The notes under the pieces are model-generated. The model was not told the DNA's origin. It saw only the letters and a program-made list of their open reading frames with translations, and did no database searches. A program made the translations under genes and the position numbers. Shown here one piece after another: positions 1 to 12,386 of a DNA stretch of 32,000 bases. The stretch's first letter is position 1. Each line of letters opens with the position of its first letter. Source of the stretch: Ignicoccus hospitalis KIN4/I (GTDB taxonomy: Archaea > Thermoproteota > Thermoprotei_A > Sulfolobales > Ignicoccaceae); assembly GCF_000017945.1 (NCBI RefSeq), contig NC_009776.1, positions 660,001 through 692,000 of the forward strand, read 5' to 3'.

Positions 1-815
1 TCGGCAAGCACTTCCATTATGTCGCCCGTGCACGGCTTTTTGGGTTTCCTAAACTTGTTAGGGCCCTTCCTCCTAAGGGCGGCACAGTCCTCTTGCTTTG
101 AGTAGAAACACGGGTAGGAGAAGAGGTAGAACGGGCTCACGCCCTCCTCCGCCGCCGCGTAGAGCGCCTTTATCGAGCCCAAGGGGACCTTAGCATATAC
201 GTAATCTATCAGTCTCTTGAACTGTTCCCACGCCTCGACGCTGACGTACCTCTTCCCCAGGTAACACTCCTTCGCTTTCAACAGCCTCTCTGCCACACAA
301 GCCGGGTCCGCGGGGGGCCTCCCCGGGTAGGCGACCACCATTTCTCCCCTTCTCTTGCCTAAAGCCGCCATAGCCAAGAAAGAGGCAAAACACTCTGCGG
401 GCTGCGGCGAAGCGGCGCAGAACGCGTCCCCTACCACCAACTCCTTGTCCCCGAGGACCTTGTCGACGCTGTCCAACACCATAGGCCAGGGGTCTCTGAG
501 ACAAATTACAAACGTCTTAAACCCCTTCCCGGCTAACTGACTCTCGGGCAGGGGCCCTTTCTTCAACCTGCTCGAGGGGTTCAACAGAAAGGCGGAGTCG
601 TATACCCTCTTGGCGTCCACGACTTCGCCCTTCTTACAAGGCCTCAACGAGACTACGTCGAAAGTTCTACGGGCCTTACCCTTTCCGCCGACCTCCTCTG
701 AGCCCCCTTCTCCCTTTTTCGAAGCGTCGTATTCGGTGGTTATCAAATATCCCAACGCGACGAGCGTTGAGCTAATTCCGCCTAAGCCGACCGCTACTCT
801 TCCCACGTCCCCCAT
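1..815 (-). CDS. hypothetical protein, 3'-truncated by the window edge; start overlaps the stop of the upstream HerA-like gene
   Basis: Absent from the ORF track because there is no stop inside the window. Hand translation of the minus strand from ATG 815..813 stays open to position 1, giving at least 271 codons (MGDVGRVAVGLGGISSTLVALGYLITTEYD...FYLFSYPCFYSKQEDCAALRRKG...). Composition is protein-like, unlike the Gly/Arg-rich 190..504 ORF in another frame. The 22-nt overlap with gene 794..2551 suggests co-transcription. No family recognised. Confidence 0.55.
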   Translation of the reverse strand, partial: MGDVGRVAVGLGGISSTLVALGYLITTEYDASKKGEGGSEEVGGKGKARRTFDVVSLRPCKKGEVVDAKRVYDSAFLLNPSSRLKKGPLPESQLAGKGFKTFVICLRDPWPMVLDSVDKVLGDKELVVGDAFCAASPQPAECFASFLAMAALGKRRGEMVVAYPGRPPADPACVAERLLKAKECYLGKRYVSVEAWEQFKRLIDYVYAKVPLGSIKALYAAAEEGVSPFYLFSYPCFYSKQEDCAALRRKGPNKFRKPKKPCTGDIMEVLA

Positions 816-2551
816 TCTTCATCGTCCCTCGTGGCGTGGTACTTCTCCCACTCGTCCACCGCGTCGATGTCTTGTCCGACTTTCTTTATTTCGGCGTGGT
901 CCACCTTCACTATAGCCGGCAACGGCGCCAAAGGGCCTAGGACTAGGGCCTCTCCCACCGAGAGCGAAGGCAAGTGTTTGACCAGCTCCTCGCTCAAGCC
1001 CTCGCTGCTGGCTTGTACGTGCCTCTGGTCTCCGGGTTCGACCAGCTTAAGCACTATCAGATTGTTGGCTTGACTCAAGGCGTCTTGGTCCAAGCCCTTA
1101 GGCCTCTGGGAGACCATAACTAGGCCTACGCCGAACTTCCTCCCTTCCCTAGTTATTCTCGACACCCAGTACTTGGTCAAGGTCCTCCTGTTAGCGGGCG
1201 CGAGTATGTGGGCCTCTTCCAGCACCAAGAGGATAGGAACTTTTAGGACTGCTTTACCCTTAGAGCCGGCCTCCCCCAAGACCTTCCTCTTCCTCGCGTT
1301 CAATATACTCTTTAGAGATACACTTACAATTATATCGGCCATATCTTCGTCCAGCGAGTGTAAGTCCATCACGTTCAGCGAGGCCGGCTTTATCCTTTCC
1401 ACTACGTCGGAGGCGTCAAAGTCAAATATTTCCTTGTATTTCTGTTCTGCATCTTGGATCTTTACCAACAAGTTAGGTATGGCAGAGTTGACGTCGCTCT
1501 TCGCGTCTATTACAGTGTACAAGTCAGAGCAGTCGTTCTTCTCACAGACTTTCGTCTTGTTCGCATTCTTTAAAGCAATCTTTATTGACGTCAACGGCGT
1601 CGTGGGGTTGAACTTACCGTACTCCCTTAGAATCTGCGCCGCCAACGCGATGTTATCGTAGTGGATAACGGGCATCTCTTTGGTGTGCATTAGCTCAATC
1701 AACATGTTTTGTAATATTCTGAAGAACTTTTCTTTACTCTCGACGACGTTGCTGTTCTCTATCACTTTCCATAAGGTTAACACGTTACGGAGGTAAAGCT
1801 CTTGTTTATGTGCGTCCTTGCTGAGGCCGATGAGCTTGGAGAAGGAGTCCGCGTCCAGCTTCGTAGGGTCGAGCTTAGGCTCTATGACGTTTACGTACTC
1901 CGCGTCGAGCCTCGAGTACTCGCCGTGCATGTCAAAGATGAGAACGCATCCATTCTTTTCTTTAACTATTCTGGTCGTTAGGACGGTAACGGTGTTACTC
2001 TTCCCCGCTCCGGTAACTGCTACCACCGCCATGTGGCGCGAGACTATTTGGGTGACGTCGACGTAGAACCCCACGCCCGGATGTGCGGCCAACTCGCCTA
2101 ACTTGATAAACCTCTTATCTCCTTCTCGTGAGAATATCTTCACAAGAGCTTCTTTGCTAGCCTTGTAAACTTCGGAGCCGGGGTCTATGGCTACCCGGGG
2201 CGGCTCTTGTTTCCCCATCTTAATTAACGGTTTTATTTTGGTGAGTACCTTAACTATTGCAAAGTACTTAGTGTTAGACTGGCCGAACATGAGCGTTCTT
2301 AATATGGTGCCGGCCAAGTGGGGGTTCTCGAGGTCGGCTAAGTCCCCTAACAGCTCGTTCCTAGCTATGCTCTCTTCAACCCAACCGAGCACCTCCTCAT
2401 TGGAGTTCAACGGCTTTATTATCACGTATTCGCCGACCTTGAGCGGCTCTTTTGTCCTGACCGTGACCTTAGAAGACGTCGCCTCATCAACCACGTAGCC
2501 TATCGCTCCCCCGTAACTTTCAACCATCTCTTGAGAGCTCATTAGTACCAT
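794..2551 (-). CDS. herA: HerA-like (DUF87) FtsK/HerA-class P-loop ATPase/translocase
   Basis: 585-aa ORF. Walker A is VAVTGAGKSNTV and Walker B is ILLVLEEAH. It carries the HerA-type signature ITREGRKFGVGLVMVSQRP and an N-terminal barrel-like region. It is paired divergently with a NurA-like gene. Confidence 0.85.
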   Translation of the reverse strand: MVLMSSQEMVESYGGAIGYVVDEATSSKVTVRTKEPLKVGEYVIIKPLNSNEEVLGWVEESIARNELLGDLADLENPHLAGTILRTLMFGQSNTKYFAIVKVLTKIKPLIKMGKQEPPRVAIDPGSEVYKASKEALVKIFSREGDKRFIKLGELAAHPGVGFYVDVTQIVSRHMAVVAVTGAGKSNTVTVLTTRIVKEKNGCVLIFDMHGEYSRLDAEYVNVIEPKLDPTKLDADSFSKLIGLSKDAHKQELYLRNVLTLWKVIENSNVVESKEKFFRILQNMLIELMHTKEMPVIHYDNIALAAQILREYGKFNPTTPLTSIKIALKNANKTKVCEKNDCSDLYTVIDAKSDVNSAIPNLLVKIQDAEQKYKEIFDFDASDVVERIKPASLNVMDLHSLDEDMADIIVSVSLKSILNARKRKVLGEAGSKGKAVLKVPILLVLEEAHILAPANRRTLTKYWVSRITREGRKFGVGLVMVSQRPKGLDQDALSQANNLIVLKLVEPGDQRHVQASSEGLSEELVKHLPSLSVGEALVLGPLAPLPAIVKVDHAEIKKVGQDIDAVDEWEKYHATRDDEEWGTWEE

Positions 2552-2574
2552 CGTCAGAACCCCTTTCGAAATAG

Positions 2575-3612
2575 GTGAAAAGTTTGAGCCGCCAAGAAGG
2601 CAGCCCCCTCTCAGACTTGATATCTATGAGGGATTACGCAATTAGAAAAATGTTTGTCGCCGCCGACGAGTATAAAGACTACGTAAAGGAAGTCTGGTAC
2701 ACAATCGAGGAGGCCGAGCGCTCTCCGAAAGTGAGCTTCGACAAGGTATTTTCTGTAGACGGGTCGAAGTTTCATATAGAATTCCAGTCCTTGTCGCTCT
2801 TCCTCGTGCGCGCCCTCTCGTTCCTCATAGACTTTAAGGGCAAGAGCGGGGTACACAAGGTCAAGAGCCTTTACGGGACGGTGACCCCTCCGTACAAGTC
2901 TAACGATAGGAGCATACTGTACATGGAAGCGTTGGAACTAGAGCTTGTAAACGAACTACTAGAAGAGGTCGGGTACTCCGACGACGCGTTAATCCTAGCG
3001 GACGGCGCCATGAGCACTATAGGTCAATGTAGGACTTACGAGGGGAGCAAATGCGGTTGTGCGCTAAGACACGGGTCCGTATCTGAAGTGCTCAACGACG
3101 GGGGCCTCGACGGGAGGTGTAAGGTATGCCTCGAGTGTGCAGTAAAACAAAACAACCTTCGAAAGGTCATAGAAAGAAGGTCGCCTAACTTATTCTATGT
3201 TGCAAAGAAATATCACTCCAACGCCCTCTTCCAAGACGAGGAGCTGGACGACCTCACCATCCTATTCTTGGTAACTACGTACTTGAGCAGCGATATGGAC
3301 GGTGCCGGCGTAACTATACCAATGAGAAAGACTATCAAGTTACCCTTGATAGGTAGGGAAGAGGAGGTCTGGTTCTTTTATGCTAAGTTCAAGAGGGGCG
3401 GGAACTTGTACTACATCGAAGTACCCAGAGAGATAGGCTTGGAAGACGCCATGAACTTCGTTAAAGAGGTCTCGCCCCTGTGTACTAAGGGCGTCGGCTA
3501 CCCCCTCCCCCTGATATGGGCCCACAAGAGCGTAGAGTTGCCGGAGAAGACAATCAGGCCCATAATCGAGCAAGCGTACGCGTTCTTCAGAAGCGGCAGA
3601 GAGGGGCTATGA
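2575..3612 (+). CDS. nurA: NurA-like nuclease (RNase H-fold, NurA domain) with an inserted Cys cluster
   Basis: 345-aa ORF. FSVDGSKF and LILADGAMS resemble the two catalytic Asp motifs of NurA-family nucleases. A Cys-rich insertion is present (SKCGCALRHG...RCKVCLEC). It is the genomic partner of a HerA-like ATPase. Start is uncertain: GTG 2575 or in-frame ATG 2626. Confidence 0.65.
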   Translation: MKSLSRQEGSPLSDLISMRDYAIRKMFVAADEYKDYVKEVWYTIEEAERSPKVSFDKVFSVDGSKFHIEFQSLSLFLVRALSFLIDFKGKSGVHKVKSLYGTVTPPYKSNDRSILYMEALELELVNELLEEVGYSDDALILADGAMSTIGQCRTYEGSKCGCALRHGSVSEVLNDGGLDGRCKVCLECAVKQNNLRKVIERRSPNLFYVAKKYHSNALFQDEELDDLTILFLVTTYLSSDMDGAGVTIPMRKTIKLPLIGREEEVWFFYAKFKRGGNLYYIEVPREIGLEDAMNFVKEVSPLCTKGVGYPLPLIWAHKSVELPEKTIRPIIEQAYAFFRSGREGL

Positions 3613-4266: not shown

Positions 4267-5628
4267 TTGGCGGAGAGGTTGCTGAGGCTTAAACTAACAG
4301 ACGTTCCTCCGGAAAGGTTAGTAGGCGTAAAGGTTAAAATATTTAAGAACAAGGATGACTTCGTAGAATTCGCCTCCCCCTTCTATACGGTAGAGGAAGT
4401 TAAGCCTAACAGCGTCGTAAAGGTGAAGAAGGACGGAGAAGGTTACGTGGCCGCCTTCTGTGAGGACGACTTCGAGTGTGCCACATCGCTGGGAAAGGTA
4501 CTAAAGCAGCTGAGGACCAGCGTAGTCGACCTAACGAACGTCGAAGACCCTTACCCCTACATAACCGGCATAGCACTGACTGCCTGGGAGTTTGACAAGT
4601 ACAAGTCCGAGAAGAGGGAAGTGGAGATAGTTTTCAGTACGCCTAACAAGGAAGTGGCGCAAGAGGCGTTAAGGCACGCGGAAGCGCAGATGTTCGCCAG
4701 AGATCTCGCTTCCGAGCCTCCTAACGTTCTGAACCCCAAAACCTTCCCGGAGAGAGTAATGGAAAAGGTCAAGGGCTTACCAATAGAGGTAGAAGTCTTA
4801 GATGAGAACGACCTCAAGAAGGAAGGACTGGAGCTACTCTTGGCGGTCGGCAAGGGTTCCGACGTACCCCCGAGGTTGCTAATAATGAGGTACTACGGAG
4901 GCGGGGAGAAGCTCGCAATGGTAGGAAAGGGAGTCACCTTTGACGCCGGCGGATATAACTTGAAGCCGGCAAATTACATGAAAAACATGCACGCCGACAT
5001 GAGCGGCGCTGCTGCAGTCGCCGCTGCGACGCTCTACGCAGCAAAACTGAACTTAAACGTCAACTTAGAGTCATATATTCCGTTAGCAGAGAACCTAATA
5101 TCCGGGAGGGCCTACAAAATGGAAGATATCATAAGGAGTTACAGTGGCAAGTACGTCCACATAGGCAACACCGACGCGGAAGGCAGGCTTATCTTGGCCG
5201 ACGCCCTAGCTTACGCTAAACGCTCGTCGCCCAAGGTGACTTTTACCTTAGCGACTTTGACGGGCGCCCAGATAATCGCCCTCGGGTACGACATAGCTGC
5301 GCTGTACGCCACCCACGACGAGGACGCCGAGAAGGTGGAGGAGGCCTCGAAGCGTACGAAGGAGCTGGTGTGGAGAATGCCTCTATACGAGAAGTATAAA
5401 GAAGAATTAAAGCATCCAAGTGCGGACTTGAGCAACGTGGGGAAGGGCAGGGGAGCCGGAAGCATAATCGGTGCGCTGTTCCTAAAGGAGTTCGCGCCGG
5501 AGAGGTGGGTGTACTTAGACATAGCCGGTCCAGCCATGGCCCACGAGGCCAACGCTTGGTGGTGCTCTCCCTACCCCACCGGTTGGGGCGCCAGGCTGAT
5601 GTTAGCGACCTTGAAGGAGTACCAGTAG
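4267..5628 (+). CDS. pepA: leucyl aminopeptidase, peptidase family M17
   Basis: 453-aa ORF with the M17 hallmark NTDAEGRL (IGNTDAEGRLILADAL) and VGKGVTFDAGGYNLKP. Start is TTG. Confidence 0.9.
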   Translation: MAERLLRLKLTDVPPERLVGVKVKIFKNKDDFVEFASPFYTVEEVKPNSVVKVKKDGEGYVAAFCEDDFECATSLGKVLKQLRTSVVDLTNVEDPYPYITGIALTAWEFDKYKSEKREVEIVFSTPNKEVAQEALRHAEAQMFARDLASEPPNVLNPKTFPERVMEKVKGLPIEVEVLDENDLKKEGLELLLAVGKGSDVPPRLLIMRYYGGGEKLAMVGKGVTFDAGGYNLKPANYMKNMHADMSGAAAVAAATLYAAKLNLNVNLESYIPLAENLISGRAYKMEDIIRSYSGKYVHIGNTDAEGRLILADALAYAKRSSPKVTFTLATLTGAQIIALGYDIAALYATHDEDAEKVEEASKRTKELVWRMPLYEKYKEELKHPSADLSNVGKGRGAGSIIGALFLKEFAPERWVYLDIAGPAMAHEANAWWCSPYPTGWGARLMLATLKEYQ

Positions 5629-5640
5629 GGTGAGGCGGCC

Positions 5641-6009
5641 GTGCCGGTTAGGGTGAGCGAGTACAAGTCGTTTAAGGAGTTGTTAGACGACATGAACAGA
5701 GAGTTAGAACTGAACTTGGAGGGCCTTAGAGGGATACTGAAGATTCTGTTAGAGGAACAGTGGAGGGGGAGTGGAGAGGGGTCAGCGTCATATCCGCGAA
5801 TGAGGATCTTGGTTGACCCTAACGACGAGTTGATAAAAAACCAAGTGATCCCGGTATTATCAGAAGTGGTTAACAACGTGAGGGCCTTGAGATCTTCCAT
5901 TGCAATCTTCAAAACGCTCTTCTCGAAGAGTGAGCTGGAGACCGAACTCAAGCTGAAAGCTATATGGGACGGCTCCCACGTCAGGGTGGTAATAGTATCT
6001 ACGACCTAA
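5641..6009 (+). CDS. hypothetical protein (122 aa), coiled-coil N-terminus and beta-rich C-terminus
   Basis: GTG-started ORF 13 nt after pepA with protein-like composition. No family recognised. Confidence 0.55.
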   Translation: MPVRVSEYKSFKELLDDMNRELELNLEGLRGILKILLEEQWRGSGEGSASYPRMRILVDPNDELIKNQVIPVLSEVVNNVRALRSSIAIFKTLFSKSELETELKLKAIWDGSHVRVVIVSTT

Positions 6010-6021
6010 GCACGTCAAGCG

Positions 6022-6348
6022 CTACTCCACCTTCTTCAAGCCGGCCATAACTAGGACGCTGTCGGCGACGAAACTCATGCTTATGTAGCCCCCCTCAGCC
6101 TTAACCACCACGTCTAACTGTCTCTTCTCGGCACTGTAGGCCCTCAACTCCTTTTCGGATATGCTCTTCAAGTCGTGGAATATATTTATCGCTATCTCAT
6201 AAATCTCGTTGATCTTTTCTGGCCTTATGTTTTCGTAGTCAACCACCTCTAGCTTAGTCCCTTTCAGCTCGTAAACCACGTACCAGTCGACCTTGTAGCC
6301 GGGCACTTCTTGTACCTTCCACTTCTTCTGTGCCATCTTCGGAATCAC
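6022..6348 (-). CDS. small protein, last gene of the ParA-like operon; possibly Roadblock/LC7-like or SegB-like
   Basis: 108-aa ORF 4 nt downstream of the ParA-like stop. A GAGGAGG Shine-Dalgarno-like run at 6349..6355 abuts GTG 6348, so ATG 6336 (MAQKKWKVQ...) is the more likely start. The C-terminal LDVVVKAEGGYISMSFVADSVLVMAGL resembles the last strands of Roadblock-fold proteins, but this resemblance is weak. Confidence 0.6.
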   Translation of the reverse strand: MIPKMAQKKWKVQEVPGYKVDWYVVYELKGTKLEVVDYENIRPEKINEIYEIAINIFHDLKSISEKELRAYSAEKRQLDVVVKAEGGYISMSFVADSVLVMAGLKKVE

Positions 6349-6352
6349 CTCC

Positions 6353-7270
6353 TCAGAGAACCTTTAAGTGTAGAGCTACACACCCTACCGGCTTGTCTCC
6401 CCTAGCGATCCTCATCGCGGCGTCCCTCAAGACCTTCAAAGCGGCCGACTCGGTGGGCTTGTAGTTTATGCTAGCGGGAGGGGCCGCGCCGGAGACCTTG
6501 ACGTCGTAGAGCTTGCCGTCGAAGGGTACGAAGACTACGTAGCGGGCAGCGAACTTCTTACAGAGCTCCGGAGCCTTAGCGACTGCCGCCCTGTACTCGT
6601 GGTGGACGGGCTTTATCATGTTAACGAACACCATGTATATGGGTAGGCTAGGGTAGAACATTTCCACGTATCTGGCCGCGTACTCAGCAGTAGTCGGGAC
6701 GGCGTCTATCACTATGTTTAGCCAGTGGGTAGCGCTGGCCGCCACCCTGTGGAAGGGGGCGGGCGCGGGTCCGCTCGGGACGGGGTAGTCGTTGAACACG
6801 ACGTCGTGCGTGTTTGACAAGTAATTAACCAAGCTTACGGCCCTCTCCCTTATTTTGTTGTAGTTGTCCTCGAGTTCTTCGGCTAACCTCTTTACCTTCC
6901 CCCTCACCAAGGCCTCCTTGTCCGATGCAGGGACCAAATCAACTTCTATCACCTTTCCTTCTGCCGTGGTGAAGCTCACCTTTCTGACTACTTCGTCTGG
7001 GCTGGCTTCTCCCATCAACAGCTCCAAGAGGCCCGGCCCTTCTGACGAACCCAGCAACCTGGACGTTAGCCTGGGCGACCACAAGTCCCAGTCTATCATA
7101 GCTACCTTGTAGTCCCTCTGTGCTATCAAGAACGCTATCTCTACGGTTATGCTAGTCTTACCGACGCCTCCCTTGGGGCTCATAGTGCCGTAGACGTTCT
7201 CCTTTTCTATGCCAACGACTATTTCTTCTCCTTTCTTCTTCTTCTTGAAGAAGAGTATCATGGCTATCAC
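6353..7270 (-). CDS. ParA/MinD-family P-loop ATPase (deviant Walker A)
   Basis: 305-aa ORF with the deviant Walker A MSPKGGVGKTS followed by VAMIDWDLWSP. Its start overlaps the stop of the upstream 199-aa gene. The N-terminus has a Lys run (FFKKKKKGEE), and the true start may be ATG 7261. Confidence 0.85.
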   Translation of the reverse strand: MIAMILFFKKKKKGEEIVVGIEKENVYGTMSPKGGVGKTSITVEIAFLIAQRDYKVAMIDWDLWSPRLTSRLLGSSEGPGLLELLMGEASPDEVVRKVSFTTAEGKVIEVDLVPASDKEALVRGKVKRLAEELEDNYNKIRERAVSLVNYLSNTHDVVFNDYPVPSGPAPAPFHRVAASATHWLNIVIDAVPTTAEYAARYVEMFYPSLPIYMVFVNMIKPVHHEYRAAVAKAPELCKKFAARYVVFVPFDGKLYDVKVSGAAPPASINYKPTESAALKVLRDAAMRIARGDKPVGCVALHLKVL

Positions 7271-7866
7271 CCGGGAACTACTTTTACCTTGAACAGGTCA
7301 CCTACCCTACTCTCCAACATCTTCTGTAACTGCTCCATGATACGCTTGGGAACCCTCTTGCTTACTATGACAATCAGTTCATGGTTGCTCAACTTCGCCT
7401 CACCTTCCACGCCTAGCTCTCTGATTATATTTTCTATAACGTTTGCTACCTCGTTCATTATTTCGTCGGGCGGTATTACTGTCTCGCTCACGCCCGCCTC
7501 CACGAGCTCCTTGTCCGGTATGAAGAGCTCTATTCCGGGGATTAGTTGGACCAACTTCTTAACGTCTTCCGGCAACGCGGAGACGTCGAGGCCCGCGCTC
7601 TCCATGACAGACTCCACGCCTCCCTCGACCATAGTAGTGTGGGGTATGACCAACAAAGCTAGGATGGCGTCCTTGAAGTCCGCCTCCGAGGGTAGTTTGG
7701 GCTCGCCGGCAACCACCCTGTTGTTTTCAACAGTAAGTATGAATTTGTTCCACTTTAGATCCTTCTTGAGTATCAGGAGTATGGCTTTCCCGCTCTTTAT
7801 TTTCTTGGCCTCAATCATTACCTCCTCTGGGTGTCGTATTTTCTTAATATTCTTCTCCTCAGGCAC
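7267..7866 (-). CDS. hypothetical protein (199 aa), first gene of the ParA-like operon
   Basis: GTG-started ORF with acidic, protein-like composition. Its N-terminal segment IKSGKAILLILKKDLKWNKFILTVENNRVVAGE resembles the motif shared by the divergent-operon proteins. The antisense frame (7289..) is low-complexity Ser/Thr/Leu, which supports this strand as coding. Confidence 0.7.
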   Translation of the reverse strand: MPEEKNIKKIRHPEEVMIEAKKIKSGKAILLILKKDLKWNKFILTVENNRVVAGEPKLPSEADFKDAILALLVIPHTTMVEGGVESVMESAGLDVSALPEDVKKLVQLIPGIELFIPDKELVEAGVSETVIPPDEIMNEVANVIENIIRELGVEGEAKLSNHELIVIVSKRVPKRIMEQLQKMLESRVGDLFKVKVVPG

Positions 7867-7898
7867 CCCGTTGAGCCCCGTGTGTGAGGCCTACGGAA

Positions 7899-7910
7899 GC
7901 TTTAATTTTC
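7899..7910. promoter_or_regulatory. AT-rich TATA-like element in the 79-bp divergent spacer; possible bidirectional promoter
   Basis: GCTTTAATTTTC is the only AT-rich block between GTG 7866 (minus operon) and TTG 7946 (plus operon). It lies about 35-45 nt from each start. A GGAGGT motif at 7930..7935 precedes the plus-strand start. Confidence 0.3.
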
Positions 7911-7945
7911 TAGTACTAGTTCCACAAACGGAGGTCCTAGAGTAC

Positions 7946-8509
7946 TTGGCGCAATCAACAGAATTGCCAAAGGGCTATTCTATTGTTAAGGGAGAATGTG
8001 GAGTTAACGCGCTAAAGAAGGTCCTCAACAACCTTTGTACGAGGCTGAGCGTAAGGAGTGGAGGCTCCAAGGGGAGCTTCGTCCTATGTAAGGGAAAGGT
8101 CGTAGAGGGCTCGTGGAGGGGGCTCCAAGGGGTCGAAGCTTGGAACGCGCTACTGGAGGACGTATCCCGAGCGTCGAGCGAATTTCACTTGACCTTTTAT
8201 CAACCTCCCTCTTCCTTGACTTTTACCGAAGACCTCGAAGTGGCAACCGAGGTCGCGTTGGAGGAGACCGAAGCCAGTTACTTTTCCGGGGTGAGCGTGG
8301 TCGCTTTGGGCAAACACGTGTTGGCCATACTCCACAAGCTCGAGAGCTTGGGGTACGAGGTGGAAGACATGAAGATAAAGGTAGATAAAAAGGTCGCGTA
8401 CGTGTCGCTGGCCGCCCGGGAGTATGACCCGGAGCTCGTAAGGAGGATCGCGCTTGAGTACTTGGAGCCGCTGGGCATCAAAGAGGTGAGGGTAGAGAGC
8501 CTTGGCTGA
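7946..8509 (+). CDS. hypothetical protein, first gene of the plus operon; PATAN/DUF4388-like N-terminal motif
   Basis: This is the 3' part of track ORF 7289..8509. The 5' 650 nt of that ORF are a low-complexity shadow of the minus-strand gene. The proposed TTG 7946 follows GGAGGT, and GTG 7880 is an alternative start. The motif is GVNALKKVLNNLCTRLSVRSGGSKGSFVLCKGKVVEGSWRGLQGVEAWNALLE. Confidence 0.6.
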   Translation: MAQSTELPKGYSIVKGECGVNALKKVLNNLCTRLSVRSGGSKGSFVLCKGKVVEGSWRGLQGVEAWNALLEDVSRASSEFHLTFYQPPSSLTFTEDLEVATEVALEETEASYFSGVSVVALGKHVLAILHKLESLGYEVEDMKIKVDKKVAYVSLAAREYDPELVRRIALEYLEPLGIKEVRVESLG

Positions 8510-9236
8510 GTTCTGTTGGTCCCTTGGCGACCCGATCAAGAGCGGTCCGGACTTGCTGAGCCTAATAAATTACGTGGCCTCGAAGGGCCTCAACTGTAGG
8601 ATAAGCGTCGTCTGGCCTCCTCTGGACCTTCTCTTCGCCGAGGGTCACATCATGGGTTACAGAGGCGACCTAAGCAGTTTCTCTTTGCCAAAGAAGCTCG
8701 AAATAAATGTATACGAACTAACTGACGAAGAGATACTCGTTGAACTTGAAGATAAAGATTACATTAAATTAGATTCCATAGAGAGCTTGATCTCGCTCAT
8801 AAAGGAAATTGTGGTGAGGGAAGCGTTAGTAATTAAGGGGAAAGTGTATCCCGTCGCCCAACTAATAGATCCGTCGTCCGTAAGCGTGGATACCGAAACG
8901 TGGGAGAGCGTCTCAGTTACCGTCGAAGAGCCGAAGGAATTCTTGGGAACGCTGATAAGTGGAGGACACAAAGCAATCAACGTTGTTTCGCTCACTGAGA
9001 GGTGGACCTTGGACGTTCTCGCATGTGACGACAAAATATTGGGAGCGAGCCTCTACATGCCGGAGAGCGTGGAAACCATAAAGGGCTCAGACGCGTTCGT
9101 CTTTCCCCTAGAAAGCCCTGGTAAGTGGATAGTTACGATGGCGAAGCCGTTCTTGTGTCCAAAGGTCTCGCTCGTACTGGACCCGAGGCTTGATGAACGG
9201 CTCAAAGGCGTTGAAACGGGGGTAGTAAAGCTATGA
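8502..9236 (+). CDS. hypothetical protein (244 aa) with a paralogous N-terminal motif
   Basis: TTG start overlaps the upstream stop by 8 nt and is preceded by GAGGTGAGGG. The N-terminus GPDLLSLINYVASKGLNCRISVVWPPLDLLFAEGHIMGY resembles the motif in 7946..8509 and 9692..10354. Confidence 0.7.
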   Translation: MAEFCWSLGDPIKSGPDLLSLINYVASKGLNCRISVVWPPLDLLFAEGHIMGYRGDLSSFSLPKKLEINVYELTDEEILVELEDKDYIKLDSIESLISLIKEIVVREALVIKGKVYPVAQLIDPSSVSVDTETWESVSVTVEEPKEFLGTLISGGHKAINVVSLTERWTLDVLACDDKILGASLYMPESVETIKGSDAFVFPLESPGKWIVTMAKPFLCPKVSLVLDPRLDERLKGVETGVVKL

Positions 9237-9688
9237 TAATTGTGGCTGTGGGCGCGGATTCGTTAATAAACAAGCTCAAAAGAGAAGTAGAGGAAGTAGA
9301 GAAAGAGCTGGCCGACTACGGGAACGCCTTGTCGGTCGTGATGGACCAGGGAAGGAAAGAGCTGGTAAGGTATAAGCTCCTAGGGTTCAAGACGAAACCC
9401 CCGGAAAAGGAAGTTATCTCAGAAAAGCCTTTGACCGTCCTCCACCGCTCCCTCTTAGTCTTCTCAAAGGACTTCGAGAGGGAGGTCGCGTCTACCTTCA
9501 AGGAGTACAAAGAGGAGATCCAGAGCTTGATAGATAAATTAAACGCCCAACGCGAGGAGTTCAAAGATCACATATTCTTCGTCTTCACCAAGGGTGCAAA
9601 AATAGTCGCTATTTACGTGCTCCCGCCTACGGTCCCGGGCTATGAGACAATTAGGGCCGAGCTAGAGAGGTTGGAGGGAGGGCGCTAG
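9233..9688 (+). CDS. hypothetical coiled-coil protein (151 aa)
   Basis: ATGA start/stop overlap with the upstream gene. The N-terminus is predicted coiled coil (LINKLKREVEEVEKELADYG) and the C-terminus is beta-rich (HIFFVFTKGAKIVAIYVLPP). Confidence 0.7.
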   Translation: MIIVAVGADSLINKLKREVEEVEKELADYGNALSVVMDQGRKELVRYKLLGFKTKPPEKEVISEKPLTVLHRSLLVFSKDFEREVASTFKEYKEEIQSLIDKLNAQREEFKDHIFFVFTKGAKIVAIYVLPPTVPGYETIRAELERLEGGR

Positions 9689-9691
9689 GCC

Positions 9692-10354
9692 GTGCCTTTC
9701 ATAAGTAGGGGCAGAACAATCGGCTTCCGAAGGGTAAACAAGTACTCCCCTTTGGAGAGTATACTGAGGGAATTCGCGAAAAAGGGGTTCATCGGTAGGT
9801 TCGTGTTCGACGGCACTTGCAAGAACGTGGGAAACGTCATATTGAGGATTGAAGTCATAAGCGAAAAGATAGTAGCAATGGAGGCCGAGGCCGGCGGGAA
9901 ACTCCTCAAAGGGAGGGAGGCCCTCGAGGTCTTCGAAGCGTGTAAAGAGGAGGCCGAAGGCTTCGTAGAAATAATAGAGCTAGACAGCGACAAAGTCCTC
10001 ATCGATTTGGAAGACAACCCCGACGCGAGGGTCAACTTAGTAATAGAGATGCCTACGTTAACATTAAAGATAGCAGCACTGCACGTTGCCGCGAAGGGCT
10101 CCGGGCTTGCCCTAGTAGGAACCATGCTCAAGGACGTCGCCTTGTCGGAGTGCTTGGTGGCAGAAGGCCTCATAGACGGGCGCTGTGACGGAGTAATAAA
10201 GGGTGAGATGTGTCCCGACAAAATAGATCTGGTTATTGCCGTAAAGGAGAGCATCGTTCACATGAGCAGGCCGGAGGAGGTTGAGGGCTCCTTCGTAGCT
10301 ATATCAGAGAAGTGTAAGATGGCCGAGTTCGTTATGAAAGCTACTAAGAGGTGA
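9692..10354 (+). CDS. hypothetical protein (220 aa) with a PATAN/DUF4388-like N-terminal motif
   Basis: GTG start lies 3 nt after the upstream stop and is preceded by GGAGGGAGG. The motif is LESILREFAKKGFIGRFVFDGTCKNVGNVILRIEVISEKIVAMEAEAGGKLLKGREALEVFEAC. Confidence 0.7.
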   Translation: MPFISRGRTIGFRRVNKYSPLESILREFAKKGFIGRFVFDGTCKNVGNVILRIEVISEKIVAMEAEAGGKLLKGREALEVFEACKEEAEGFVEIIELDSDKVLIDLEDNPDARVNLVIEMPTLTLKIAALHVAAKGSGLALVGTMLKDVALSECLVAEGLIDGRCDGVIKGEMCPDKIDLVIAVKESIVHMSRPEEVEGSFVAISEKCKMAEFVMKATKR

Positions 10355-10356
10355 GG

Positions 10357-11391
10357 TCACTCCTCGTAACCCAGCTCTTTCCTCACTTCCTTAGTCGCTT
10401 CGACCATAACCTTCAGCTTGTTGAAAGCTATGTCTCTATCCCCGAGGATCTTTAGCCCGCAGTCCGGCTTGACGTAGACCTTCTCTGGCGGCATTATTTC
10501 TAATACTTTGTATATCGCGTTCTTCACGAAGTCTTTGCTCTCCACCTTCTTAGAGTGTATATCTATCACGCCGTATCCTAACTCCTTTCCGCTCGAGGCA
10601 TAATCGTACTCCTTTATCGCTTCCAGTAACTTAAAGTTGTTATTGACAAATTCTAGGTCGAACTGGTCTACCGGGAACTCCAGTAGGTCGGGGAAGAGCT
10701 TCTCTACCCGGCCGTGGCATATGTGGACGATCTTCTTTGCGTCGTCCATCCCTTGGAACACGATCGAGAGGGCTTCCTTAGTTATCTCTATGTCCTCCTT
10801 GTAGGGGTGCGTCGAGAGCGCGGGCTCATCCACTTGAAGGTACCTCGCGCCCGCGTCGTAAAGGGCCTTGAGTTCCTTGTGAAGCTCTTTCGCCAAGTCT
10901 ATTATGAGCTCCTTCTTGTCCCCGTAGTATTCGTTAAAGGCCCAGTCGGCCATAGTGTAGGGACCTGTTATTATCGCCTTTACCGGCCTTCCTTGAGCGT
11001 ACTCGGTCGCGTACTTCCAGTCCGTTAAAGTCATTGGCCCTTTCCACCTTATCTTACCCACGACCACGGGCTTCCTGTAGTGGACGTTGTCAAATATTCT
11101 GACCCAGTCCTCCGGTTTGTTGCCTACGACAAACCCTTCCATCCTCTCGGCGAAGTACACCTCCATGTCTTCCCTTCTCTGCTCCCCGTCGGAGATGATG
11201 TCGACGCCGGCCTTAATTTGATCCTCGACCGCCAGCCTTATCGCTTCCTTAATCATCTTTTCGAACTCTTCGCTGGATATTTCGCCTTTGTAGTGCTTCT
11301 TTAAGGCCTCTTTAGCTATGGGGAACTTCGGGTAACTGCCGACAACTGTCGTGGGAAGCACTTTAGGCACTCTATAGCTCATAGAACTCAC
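10357..11391 (-). CDS. metE: cobalamin-independent methionine synthase, catalytic (MetE C-terminal-like) protein
   Basis: 344-aa ORF. The N-terminus is [10 protein letters not shown]. Zn-ligand motifs are VHICHG and KPDCGLK, and YLQVDEPAL is present. These are typical of short archaeal MetE. Confidence 0.85.
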
Positions 11392-12386
11392 CCCTCGTTA
11401 ACAAGTTCCCTCAACTTAAAGGCTATCTCAGCCAGTCTCCTCATTTTCTTCCTAATGTAAGAATATGGCAACACGTCATATCTATAGCTAGCACTCACGT
11501 GTACCTCATTGGCGTCGACCTCTTCTATCAAATTCAACGTCTTTGCGGCAGTTTCCTCTATGTGCTCCAATTTCACGTTTAAAGCGTCCGTCACGCCAAA
11601 CTCTATTATCGGGTAGGGGTATCCGTACTCAGAGAAGGTAGCTTTAGCGTCGTCATAGTTCCACGAAGTCATGTCAAATCCGATACCATCTACTGATAAG
11701 TCCAACAACATTTCGTAGACGTTCTCGGGGTTCTTGAAGTACGTTTTCACGACTACGGGGACGTCGACCGCTTGTGCGATTACGTTTATGTACTCTATCC
11801 CCAACTGCTTCGCTTCGGCTGGGACCTCGGGGTCCACGAGGGCGGGCTCTTCCAAGTATATGTAGTCCACGTACTGGCTCAAGGCCACGGCCTCGTACGC
11901 CAAAGCGGACGTTAGATCAGACATGAGCTCTTCCATCCTCTCGTAGTACTGGTTGTCCACGTGAAGGGCGAAGGTTAGGGGACCGGGCAAGTGAGCTTTG
12001 AGGGGCCTCGGGCTAACTTGGTACGCCAGCCTGTGCTCCCCCAAGGTCACGGGCCTTAAGGGGTAGATCGGGCCCTTGACCTTAGCTCGCTTGTAATAGA
12101 AGTTGAGCTCGTAAAACCTGTAGTAACCGCCAACTTCCGGGAGCTCGAAGCCTTCCCACGTGGACACGAAGGGACGGAACACGTCGTCCCAAAGCAAGTG
12201 GCCGGTGGTGAGGAGGTCCAGCCCCTCTTCGACTTGTTCCATTATGACCCTCTTGGTGCTCCTCTCCCAAGCGCTCCGGAGGGAGGTGAAGTCGAGCTTG
12301 CCGGCGTTATAGGCGTCGATGCTCTTCCGCAGCTCCGGCGGCCGCGGGTAGCCTCCGGGATGGGAGGCAACTACCTTCAGCCTCAC
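11388..12386 (-). CDS. MetE N-terminal-domain-like protein (non-catalytic half of a split methionine synthase)
   Basis: 332-aa ORF with a 4-nt overlap with the metE-like gene. It has the same (beta/alpha)8-type pattern ([19 protein letters not shown]) but lacks the His/Cys zinc motifs. Confidence 0.7.

Follow-up and report, generated by a model that had tools for sequence, protein, structure and literature searches.

The locus described here lies in a 32,000-nucleotide stretch of Ignicoccus hospitalis KIN4/I (NCBI RefSeq assembly GCF_000017945.1, contig NC_009776.1, positions 660,001 to 692,000, forward strand), which was analysed as a whole and is called the window below; all coordinates for I. 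hospitalis are given in its numbering. The locus comprises eight genes, g0 to g7, which encode a ParA/MinD-class ATPase (g2) and seven small proteins, and may specify a membrane-associated switch for spatial patterning or polarity. The products (ABU81921 to ABU81928) are annotated as hypothetical throughout, except for the ATPase (P-loop NTPase).

Genes g1 to g7 are organised as two translationally coupled operons. The minus-strand operon begins with g3 (7866–7267; a 199-residue acidic protein, ABU81924) and continues with the ATPase gene g2 (7270 or 7261–6353; 305 or 302 residues, ABU81923), which carries the sequence MSPKGGVGKTS, and g1 (6348 or 6336–6022; 108 or 104 residues, the 108-residue form being Igni_0740). 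The plus-strand operon consists of g4 (7946–8509; 187 residues, ABU81925), with a PATAN-like N-terminal module and a C-terminal α/β domain; g5 (8502–9236; 244 residues, ABU81926), with two modules around a helical and β-meander insert; g6 (9233–9688; 151 residues, ABU81927), with two heptad-like helical segments and a short C-terminal β region; and g7 (9692–10354; 220 residues, ABU81928), with a tandem module pair. Genes g4 and g5 overlap by 8 nt and g5 and g6 by 4 nt (ATGA), and a 3 nt gap separates g6 from g7. GGAGG-like motifs lie upstream of g4, g5, g6 and g7 and of the ATG of the 104-residue form of g1. The original prediction had described two back-to-back operons sharing a 79 bp spacer with a single AT-rich block; the open reading frame (ORF) list and direct reading of the sequence agree with this layout and with the junctions and GGAGG-like motifs, and all four of the peptide strings quoted occur in the translations. 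The count of seven genes did not stand: an eighth co-conserved gene, g0 (5641–6009, plus strand; a 122-residue acidic helical protein, ABU81921), is convergent with g1 and belongs to the locus.

Because of the orthologue alignments, the shorter starts are favoured for the ATPase (302 residues) and for g1 (104 residues); the ATG of the latter, at 6336, has GAGGAGGTGA just upstream. The g4 start at 7946 is backed by orthologues, and by the same alignments the GenBank call for this gene (212 residues, ABU81925, start 7871) probably includes 25 codons too many. Two long ORFs were judged spurious: a 406-residue frame (7289–8509, plus strand), which runs antisense through g3 into g4, and a 189-residue frame (9685–10254, minus strand), antisense to g7.

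The divergent promoter spacer (7867–7945; 79 bp) is common to both operons and holds a single AT-rich box, AGCTTTAATTTT, at 7898–7909. The box has the form A(A/G)G(C/T)TTTA(A/T)TTT in 8/8 orthologous spacers, is the sole conserved element of the spacer alignment, and its consensus was found just twice across the 32 kb window. It looks like an archaeal B recognition element (BRE)/TATA element; as only one such conserved box is present, a shared or bidirectional promoter for both operons can reasonably be supposed. Rfam and tRNA scans of the window gave no RNA genes. A scan for bacterial promoters and terminators gave counts at chance level and is irrelevant, because the host is an archaeon.

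Conservation was assessed in seven comparison loci, namely I. islandicus (L093), I. pacificus (L094) and five contigs from metagenomes or metagenome-assembled genomes (L090, L091, L092, L095 and L096). The prediction that the genes are co-conserved as a unit in related genomes held, with the same gene order in all seven. In L091 to L096, g0 to g7 have the same order and orientation, flanked by HerA, NurA and an M17 peptidase on one side and by a split MetE pair on the other. Contig L090, with 69% identity for the ATPase and about 37% for g4, keeps all eight genes although both flanks are replaced (a ribosomal/RNA polymerase cluster with an ABC transporter on one side, SufC–SufBD on the other); the block, g0 included, therefore moves as a unit. 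The g0 orthologue adjoins g1 in 7/7 comparison loci, L090 included, and g6 orthologues occur in every complete copy of the plus operon. Identity to the window protein was 71–85% for the ATPase in the MAFFT alignment (69–85% by BLASTP), 49–76% for g3, 47–64% for g5, 48–61% for g7, 31–74% for g1 and 30–46% for g4, the fastest-evolving protein of the block. Hidden Markov models (HMMs) of g0, g1, g3, g4, g5 and g6 gave no match beyond the orthologous loci in 1.7 Mb of fetched sequence. Ignicoccus and a few of its close relatives thus share the locus as a co-inherited module of eight genes.

Some features of the surroundings and of single copies were recorded in addition. Divergent genes for HerA (585 residues, minus strand) and NurA (345 residues, plus strand) lie at 794–3612 of the window, 2–5 kb from the block, a linkage that is held in the Ignicoccus species and lost in L090. 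Between them and the block are a 103-residue ORF and an M17 leucyl aminopeptidase gene (4267–5628). Directly after g7, on the minus strand (10357–12386), lie two MetE-type genes (Meth_synt_1/2; 344 and 332 residues), a split methionine synthase pair that is conserved in all Ignicoccus loci. In L096 (JGI contig Ga0072504_123346, 3828–4738) the ATPase gene is called in two pieces of 173 and 142 residues, for which a frameshift, a misassembly or, in that population, a pseudogene would account.

The ATPase scored 39.3 bits against Pfam CbiA (cut-off 25.4), and ParA and AAA_31 were also above their cut-offs. In an alignment of 16 family members, the deviant Walker A motif SPKGGVGKT with its signature lysine (S31–T39) is invariant save for position 36 (V/I); the Walker A′ motif D60-W61-D62, the Walker B motif FNDYPVP (F159-N160-D161-Y162-P163) and the motifs NM..P and PFD are likewise invariant. 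The CbiA match and the invariance of all nucleotide motifs uphold the earlier assignment to the ParA/MinD type and mark the highly divergent protein as catalytically intact, as judged by motifs. Given these invariant motifs, ATPase activity and dimerisation upon ATP binding are expected of it. The best matches among PDB sequences were weak (BceF, 4e-6; MinD, 2e-4) and covered the N-terminal third only; matches in NCBIfam and the PDB (KGGVGR-variant AAA, Mrp-type, BY-kinase and MinD) were similarly weak and confined to the P-loop third. With 20 clusters among 5.8 billion proteins the family is tiny, and it constitutes an orphan lineage of the ParA/MinD class.

The N-terminus of the ATPase, MILFFKKKKK, forms a hydrophobic and polybasic tail. 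Every family member has a hydrophobic start, an invariant Phe and then four or five Lys/Arg residues (consensus LLxLLFxRKKPK; F8 invariant); the corresponding tails are MVNLLKLLKLLFLRRR in paralogues and GILDRLFGRKKRR in a 41%-identical ATPase of L088. The C-terminus, CVALHLKVL, is without the character of a membrane-targeting sequence. The protein is basic (isoelectric point (pI) 8.9) and contains an invariant (C237) and a nearly invariant (C297) cysteine.

Ignicoccus genomes contain two groups of ATPase paralogues, one in this locus and the other 33–38% identical (BLASTP). ATPases of the EYM_02425 type were rejected as orthologues; they represent the second group, next to PINA and Usp. The I. 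islandicus paralogue (L087, 6413–8954, CP006867) has the gene for a PINA-like PIN/T2SSE-type ATPase directly before it and Usp after it. Paralogues in L087, L008 and L007 share the N-terminal tail LLKLLFxRRR, and no PINA was seen beside the ATPase in L008 and L007. The L008 copy has an amino-acid-kinase-like ORF upstream and Usp-like and radical-SAM-like ORFs downstream, all assigned by eye. A profile scan of genome contigs with the ATPase alignment returned two true relatives, both of the paralogue type, and was dominated by the generic Walker A pattern. A protein of about 235–241 residues followed by SufC–SufBD is found both beside the block in L090 (9675–12487) and near the paralogous ATPase in L087 (2748–5605); this common arrangement hints that a duplication next to Suf genes may have given rise to the two Ignicoccus ATPase loci.

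The plus-operon proteins g5 and g7 were modelled with AlphaFold2. The g7 model (predicted local distance difference test (pLDDT) 80.5) shows two β-α-β4-α-β modules of the same topology at residues 7–97 and 129–217, and the g5 model (pLDDT 90.9, predicted template modelling (TM) score 0.84) two β-α-β3-α-β modules at 10–72 and 129–216. Foldseek searches of both models against the PDB gave no significant match: the best E values were 5e-3 to 1e-2, with TM scores, among the matches listed, of at most 0.27 and mostly 0.11–0.18 (for g5, E 5e-3, TM 0.13). Matches of g5 and g7 to PCNA/β-clamp and USP structures were non-significant and were discarded as noise.

The paralogy test set each candidate module against a profile built from 26 sequences of the g7 N-module family; the HHalign scores were calibrated by 60 column shuffles. 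The g5 N-module gave z 10.1 (0/60 shuffles; 80% probability, E 1.4e-5). The g4 N-module (residues ~10–85) gave z 4.4 (score 17.4 versus 9.7 ± 1.7 for the shuffles, 0/60) in an alignment that is co-linear across 84 columns and in which the G-x-E-A-W motif is aligned. The g5 C-module gave z 3.6 (1/60), the g3 N-terminal region z 1.8 (5/60), and the controls (the C-terminal parts of g4 and g3, and g1, g6 and g0) z ≤1.0 (8–25/60). In the g4 and g5 C-module alignments, which are co-linear, the motifs G-x-[IV]-[IV]-x-[AG] and G-x-[ED]-A-[LWF] are superposed. From the z-scores against shuffles it is therefore concluded that g4, g5 and g7 share a repeated module, as judged by profile comparison, the case being strong for g5 and moderate for g4, and that g3 does not detectably do so. 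The N-terminal pattern had been ascribed to at least three and arguably four products; the three in the plus operon were recovered by HHalign, whereas the 199-residue g3 was not. All-against-all BLASTP and HHalign with profiles of three or four sequences gave no paralogy signal, which emerged only with the g7 N-module profile broadened by exhaustive search.

This exhaustive HMMER search with the g7 profile, covering 1.84 billion representative proteins, returned 22 proteins; apart from the orthologues, the g7 N-module (residues 1–115) matched the N-termini of archaeal proteins of 238–466 residues with E values from 1e-15 to 5e-4. One of these, P0048, was reached at E 5.8e-7 (1.84e9 proteins) and passes the threshold of Pfam DUF2226 (PF09987; 30.3 bits versus 22). 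Sub-threshold DUF2226 matches in the same register were found for P0054 (20.4 bits), P0049 (16.8) and P0041 (15.3), and P0040 to P0043 gave co-linear matches to DUF4388 (13.4–19.5 bits, gathering threshold 25; profile positions 6–76; best E 0.0011). Neither g7 itself matched DUF2226, nor did g3, g4, g5, g7 or their orthologue sets match DUF4388 (PF14332). The Pfam scores of its relatives thus place the g7 N-module, transitively and not directly, in what appears to be a superfamily that includes DUF2226 and touches PATAN. The PATAN/DUF4388 identity proposed in the original prediction proved a good lead by way of the g7 relatives, although no protein of the locus matches DUF4388. A regular-expression search of the fetched loci (1.7 Mb) for genuine DUF4388 proteins found none.

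Four cysteines of the g7 C-module, C154, C165, C174 and C208 (ECL..EG..D..C.GV.KGE.CPD ... C.M), are invariant and might bind a metal or be joined in intracellular disulfides. Invariant cysteines occur also in g5 (C175 and C219) and in g4 (C31 and C48). If the ATPase were an Mrp/NBP35-like iron–sulfur carrier or a BY-kinase-like enzyme, with its cysteine-rich neighbours as clients, this would accommodate the invariant cysteines of the ATPase, g7 (four), g5 and g4, the presence of MrpORP, ApbC, CFD1, BceF, Etk and Wzc among the best sequence matches, and the SufC–SufBD genes that adjoin the block in L090 and lie close to the L087 paralogue. These matches, however, concern the P-loop third only and fall far below the cut-offs (34 versus 450 and 27–29 versus 108–314 bits); no CxxC motif, tyrosine cluster or polysaccharide genes were found, and in the window the block is not linked to Suf genes. 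Disulfides inside the cell, moreover, are common in hyperthermophilic Crenarchaeota. Such a function is considered very unlikely.

The ATPase alone gave a match in PADLOC, Pfam and NCBIfam scans of the eight proteins (Pfam also for the g1, g3, g4 and g5 orthologue sets); none of the small proteins (g0, g1 and g3 to g7) reached a Pfam or NCBIfam threshold. A reading as a defence system was discarded, its only matches being to PDC-M28B, through a generic P-loop, and to LmuB, through a coiled coil. In a crude heptad scan, g6 showed heptad-like helical segments at about residues 8–40 and 75–118, and g0 a weaker one at 67–101. The sub-threshold matches of g6 were to coiled-coil families only, plus LmuB at 0.003, so that g6 appears to be a helical, coiled-coil-like protein. 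Two parts of g3 stand out in its alignment (8 sequences, mean column identity 70%): a basic peptide at the N-terminus, GKxIKKV, which is conserved, and a core, ESAGLD..LPEDV..L.QLIPGIELFIPDK, which is strongly so. The protein matched no family and was without detectable relation to the g7 N-module. Profile searches of PDB sequences with g1, g3, g4, g5 and the g7 N-module family gave nothing meaningful; a match to the designed repeat protein 7rdr was set aside as a compositional artefact. Roadblock domains had also been suggested for checking: none was found in the locus proteins by Pfam, and HHalign against real Roadblock proteins was negative. This applies in particular to g1 and to the C-terminus of g6, for which a Roadblock-like nature found no support (no Pfam match; HHalign probability at most 0.7% with three real Roadblock proteins as the profile).

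Gene g1 lies immediately downstream of the ATPase gene, the position of a MinE-, ParB- or SegB-type partner, and its product has a pI of 6.6; the g1 profile found neither SegB (7DUV) nor MglB among PDB sequences. The alternative raised in the original prediction, that the ATPase and the ~108-residue protein are a SegA/SegB-type segregation pair among unrelated genes, rests on this order, in which an ATPase gene is followed by one for a protein of ~105 residues as in segAB, on the size of g1 (near the 109 residues of SegB) and on the basic ATPase (pI 8.9). SegA is a 220-residue Soj-like protein and SegB a 109-residue RHH protein that binds DNA site-specifically and has an unstructured N-terminus by which the ATPase is stimulated, both with PDB entries (PMC8682754); the structures (7DUT, 7DV3 and 7DWR; 7DUV and 7DV2) became available there in 2021. 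The locus ATPase, in contrast, has 302–305 residues, where SegA has 220 residues and 28–32% identity to Soj; phmmer against PDB sequences, among which 7DUT, 7DV3 and 7DWR should be included, returned no SegA at E≤0.01, and the g1 profile no SegB (7DUV, 7DV2) at E≤10. Nor is g1 basic (pI 6.6), no RHH or HTH domain was matched by Pfam in its 8 orthologues, and the neighbouring genes, far from being unrelated, are conserved together with the pair. SegB is, furthermore, reported to be absent from Thermoproteota outside the Sulfolobaceae (PMC12139799). With no SegA or SegB sequence match, a g1 that is not basic and co-conserved neighbours, this alternative was rejected as highly improbable.

A full-length homologue of g7 was found in Pyrofollis japonicus (BLASTP 1e-16, HHalign 98.8%). 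There, a Robl_LC7 gene is followed on the same strand, after a 28 nt gap, by the g7 homologue and then by a gene for a Zn-ribbon membrane protein. The same pair of a Roadblock gene and a g7-like gene was found on two metagenome contigs (L099 and L100). The Roadblock assignment is based on 54 bits against Pfam Robl_LC7 for L100, on near-identity to L100 for L099, and on precomputed Pfam data for the Pyrofollis locus (L098). As to the genomic link between PATAN and Roadblock genes noted for bacteria, Robl_LC7 lies directly upstream of the g7 homologue in the loci of three relatives, and no Robl_LC7 match was obtained in the window. The neighbourhood is conserved in these Pyrodictiaceae-like archaea: in L098 (9637–12872, AP028634) and L100 (50–3154) the order is a 179–201-residue protein, Robl_LC7, the g7-like gene and the Zn-ribbon membrane protein; the first of these matches Pfam MJ0207 in L098 and was placed in the same family by eye only in L100, which also encodes a 203-residue protein with a C-terminal half that is PATAN-like by eye. 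A metagenome scan for relatives of the g7 N-module gave two short loci with the narrower alignment and none with the broad one.

Beside the direct operonic coupling in Ignicoccus, two indirect bridges tie the ATPase family to the g7 family. An orthologue of the Pyrofollis Zn-ribbon protein (BLASTP 2e-20) is encoded two genes downstream of the 41%-identical ATPase in L088, where an opposite-strand ORF of 131 residues separates the two; and a 375-residue g7-like protein precedes PINA–Hjc in L097, while the paralogous Ignicoccus ATPase follows PINA in L087. The 196- and 233-residue proteins of L088, which resemble g4 and g5 by eye, had no HMM or HHalign support as homologues. The C-terminus of many remote g7-like proteins is GILGRLKKLFGGE, GLLSRLFGRRSS or CRFLLFFRR. 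By sequence these C-terminal peptides seem to resemble the N-terminal tail of the ATPase family, and they are also similar to what we take to be the membrane-targeting sequence of MinD. In P0050, P0051, P0053, P0055, P0056 and P0040 (300–470 residues), PATAN-like modules were seen by eye at both ends, joined by long charged linkers.

These neighbourhoods bear on whether the two operons belong together at all. They could be functionally unrelated, share a promoter region and be adjacent through recent common ancestry: complete synteny is restricted to relatives at the Ignicoccus level, the Pyrofollis g7 homologue has no ATPase of the locus family nearby, and the L088 ATPase neighbours are not demonstrably g4 or g5. 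This is nevertheless unlikely, because L090 (ATPase 69% and g4 about 37% identical) retains the whole block between replaced flanks, one conserved BRE/TATA-like box serves both operons, and two independent bridges, through the Zn-ribbon membrane protein and through PINA, link the families in other lineages.

The PINA adjacency allows a further explanation, in which a nucleoid-based ParA-like system acts on DNA (chromosome or recombination intermediates, or partition) and the PATAN-like proteins are adaptors to DNA-processing ATPases such as PINA. It would account for the position of the paralogous ATPase directly after PINA, of the g7-like protein directly before PINA–Hjc in L097 and of HerA–NurA 2–5 kb from the block in Ignicoccus genomes, and it fits the basic ATPase; PINA has weak precomputed Pfam T2SSE matches, and PATAN is reported to bind PilB1 of the T2SSE family. 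The membrane-targeting-like tails, however, favour the membrane over the nucleoid; the adjacency to PINA concerns the paralogue and not the present locus, L090 lacks the HerA/NurA linkage, and no DNA-binding domain was detected in the eight proteins by Pfam and NCBIfam. On balance, a DNA-based system is improbable.

We consider it about an even chance (probability roughly 0.5) that the locus encodes a membrane-associated ParA/MinD switch with PATAN-like adaptors for spatial patterning or polarity; somewhat more broadly, it is probably a cell-organising machine that has not been described. The ATPase, with the signature lysine of SPKGGVGKT, would form an ATP-dependent sandwich dimer that docks on the cytoplasmic membrane through its hydrophobic and polybasic N-terminal tail. 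The multi-module PATAN-like proteins would act as adaptors between the ATPase and membrane-proximal cargo or a scaffold, for which g6 is a candidate. ATP hydrolysis and release would be triggered by a peptide of a partner protein, candidates being the basic N-terminus of g3 and the co-translated g1, and the outcome would be MinD- or ParA-like spatial patterning or a polarity switch. According to published work (bioRxiv 10.1101/2021.06.11.447907), PATAN is a domain that localises to membranes, mediates protein interactions and binds the PilB1 ATPase at the latter's N-terminal domain, which fits an adaptor role for the PATAN-like proteins. A more specific version is rather doubtful: here a membrane-tethered SIMIBI ATPase with multi-module PATAN/DUF2226-like adaptors would stand in for a small GTPase, as the original prediction had supposed, and would be the switch of an archaeal system for polarity or positioning, a role held in bacteria by the Ras-like MglA, whose partners there are Roadblock and PATAN proteins; Roadblock-containing versions would survive in Pyrodictiaceae. 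Its cargo could be a machine with a T2SSE/PilT-like ATPase (PINA-like, fibre or secretion) or elements of Ignicoccus endomembranes or division.

Several points weigh against the proposal of a membrane-associated switch. The tail of the window ATPase is not clearly amphipathic, but rather hydrophobic and polybasic (hydrophobic moment 0.30). The g7 C-module gave z 0.2 (21/60 shuffles) and matches by topology alone, and the g4 and g5 C-module relations are weak HHalign scores with calibration by column shuffles only. The link to DUF4388 is transitive and sub-threshold, and in the locus the ATPase alone reaches a Pfam or NCBIfam threshold. Proteins g0, g1, g3 and g6 are without detectable relatives outside the orthologous loci (HMMs, 1.7 Mb), and HMM and HHalign comparisons could not identify the L088 ATPase neighbours as homologues of g4 or g5. 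Tight synteny is documented in one genus-level clade only, where short divergence time could partly explain it. Membrane binding, dimerisation, stimulation by a partner and cargo are all inferred. In the literature searched, no mention was found of these genes, of DUF2226 or of a pairing of ParA/MinD with PATAN.

To our knowledge, almost nothing is known of how Ignicoccus organises or divides its cell. The genus departs far from the usual prokaryotic cell plan: there are two membranes with a huge compartment between them, and the endomembrane system is dynamic (PMC5468417). A genus-wide module that couples a ParA/MinD switch to PATAN-like adaptors is a testable candidate for its spatial organisation. 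If the proposal is true, the orphan archaeal family DUF2226 would gain its first functional context, and the PATAN/Roadblock theme of the GTPase polarity modules of bacteria would be carried over to an archaeal SIMIBI ATPase. Should the proteins prove to be unrelated neighbours, the finding shrinks to another orphan ParA-like ATPase.

Among known systems, MinD shares with the locus ATPase the deviant Walker A motif with the signature lysine, the Walker A′ (DxD) and Walker B motifs, a small partner gene directly downstream, a terminal hydrophobic and basic tail, and the predicted dimer–monomer cycle. The ATPase differs in scoring 27.4 and 24.0 bits against TIGR01968 and TIGR01969 (cut-offs 212.9 and 201.75) and in carrying its tail at the N-terminus, whereas that of MinD is C-terminal. 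Only about 20 clusters, all from Ignicoccus-like archaea, make up its family, and no MinE, MinC (Pfam and NCBIfam scans of the neighbours) or FtsZ context was found at the locus; no FtsZ is known from I. hospitalis. With SegAB the locus has in common a ParA-superfamily ATPase followed by a ~105-residue protein in one operon of a crenarchaeon, but the ATPase is 80 residues longer and not Soj-like, and g1 is not basic and has no RHH match.

The module resembles PATAN in size and motif order (helix, G-x-hydrophobic strand, G-x-[IV]-[IV]-x-A and G-x-[ED]-A-[LW]), in its several copies per locus, in the Roadblock gene that adjoins the g7 homologue in relatives, and in the association with a P-loop ATPase and the membrane localisation reported for bacterial PATAN. 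It differs in that the locus proteins lack a PF14332 match, which only remote relatives approach (at most 19.5 versus 25 bits), and in that REC, HTH and small GTPase domains are missing from the locus, where no Roadblock domain was detected either; the partner NTPase is of the SIMIBI-class ParA/MinD type, not a Ras-like GTPase or a PilB-type ATPase. DUF2226 is linked through the g7 profile, which reaches P0048 and thereby a protein that passes the family threshold, but g7 packs two modules into 220 residues, whereas the matched proteins have 240–470 residues with long linkers and amphipathic C-terminal tails.

The likeness to PomXYZ of Myxococcus is conceptual. There, a ParA/MinD ATPase is described with two activating or scaffold partners, one of them a coiled-coil protein, just as the locus has several partners, a coiled-coil-type protein among them, and more than one candidate for activating the ATPase. 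The partners are without homology to each other in the two systems, and PomZ is reported to pattern on the nucleoid and to position FtsZ. What would be new in Ignicoccus is an undescribed set of partners around a known kind of ParA/MinD positioning system.

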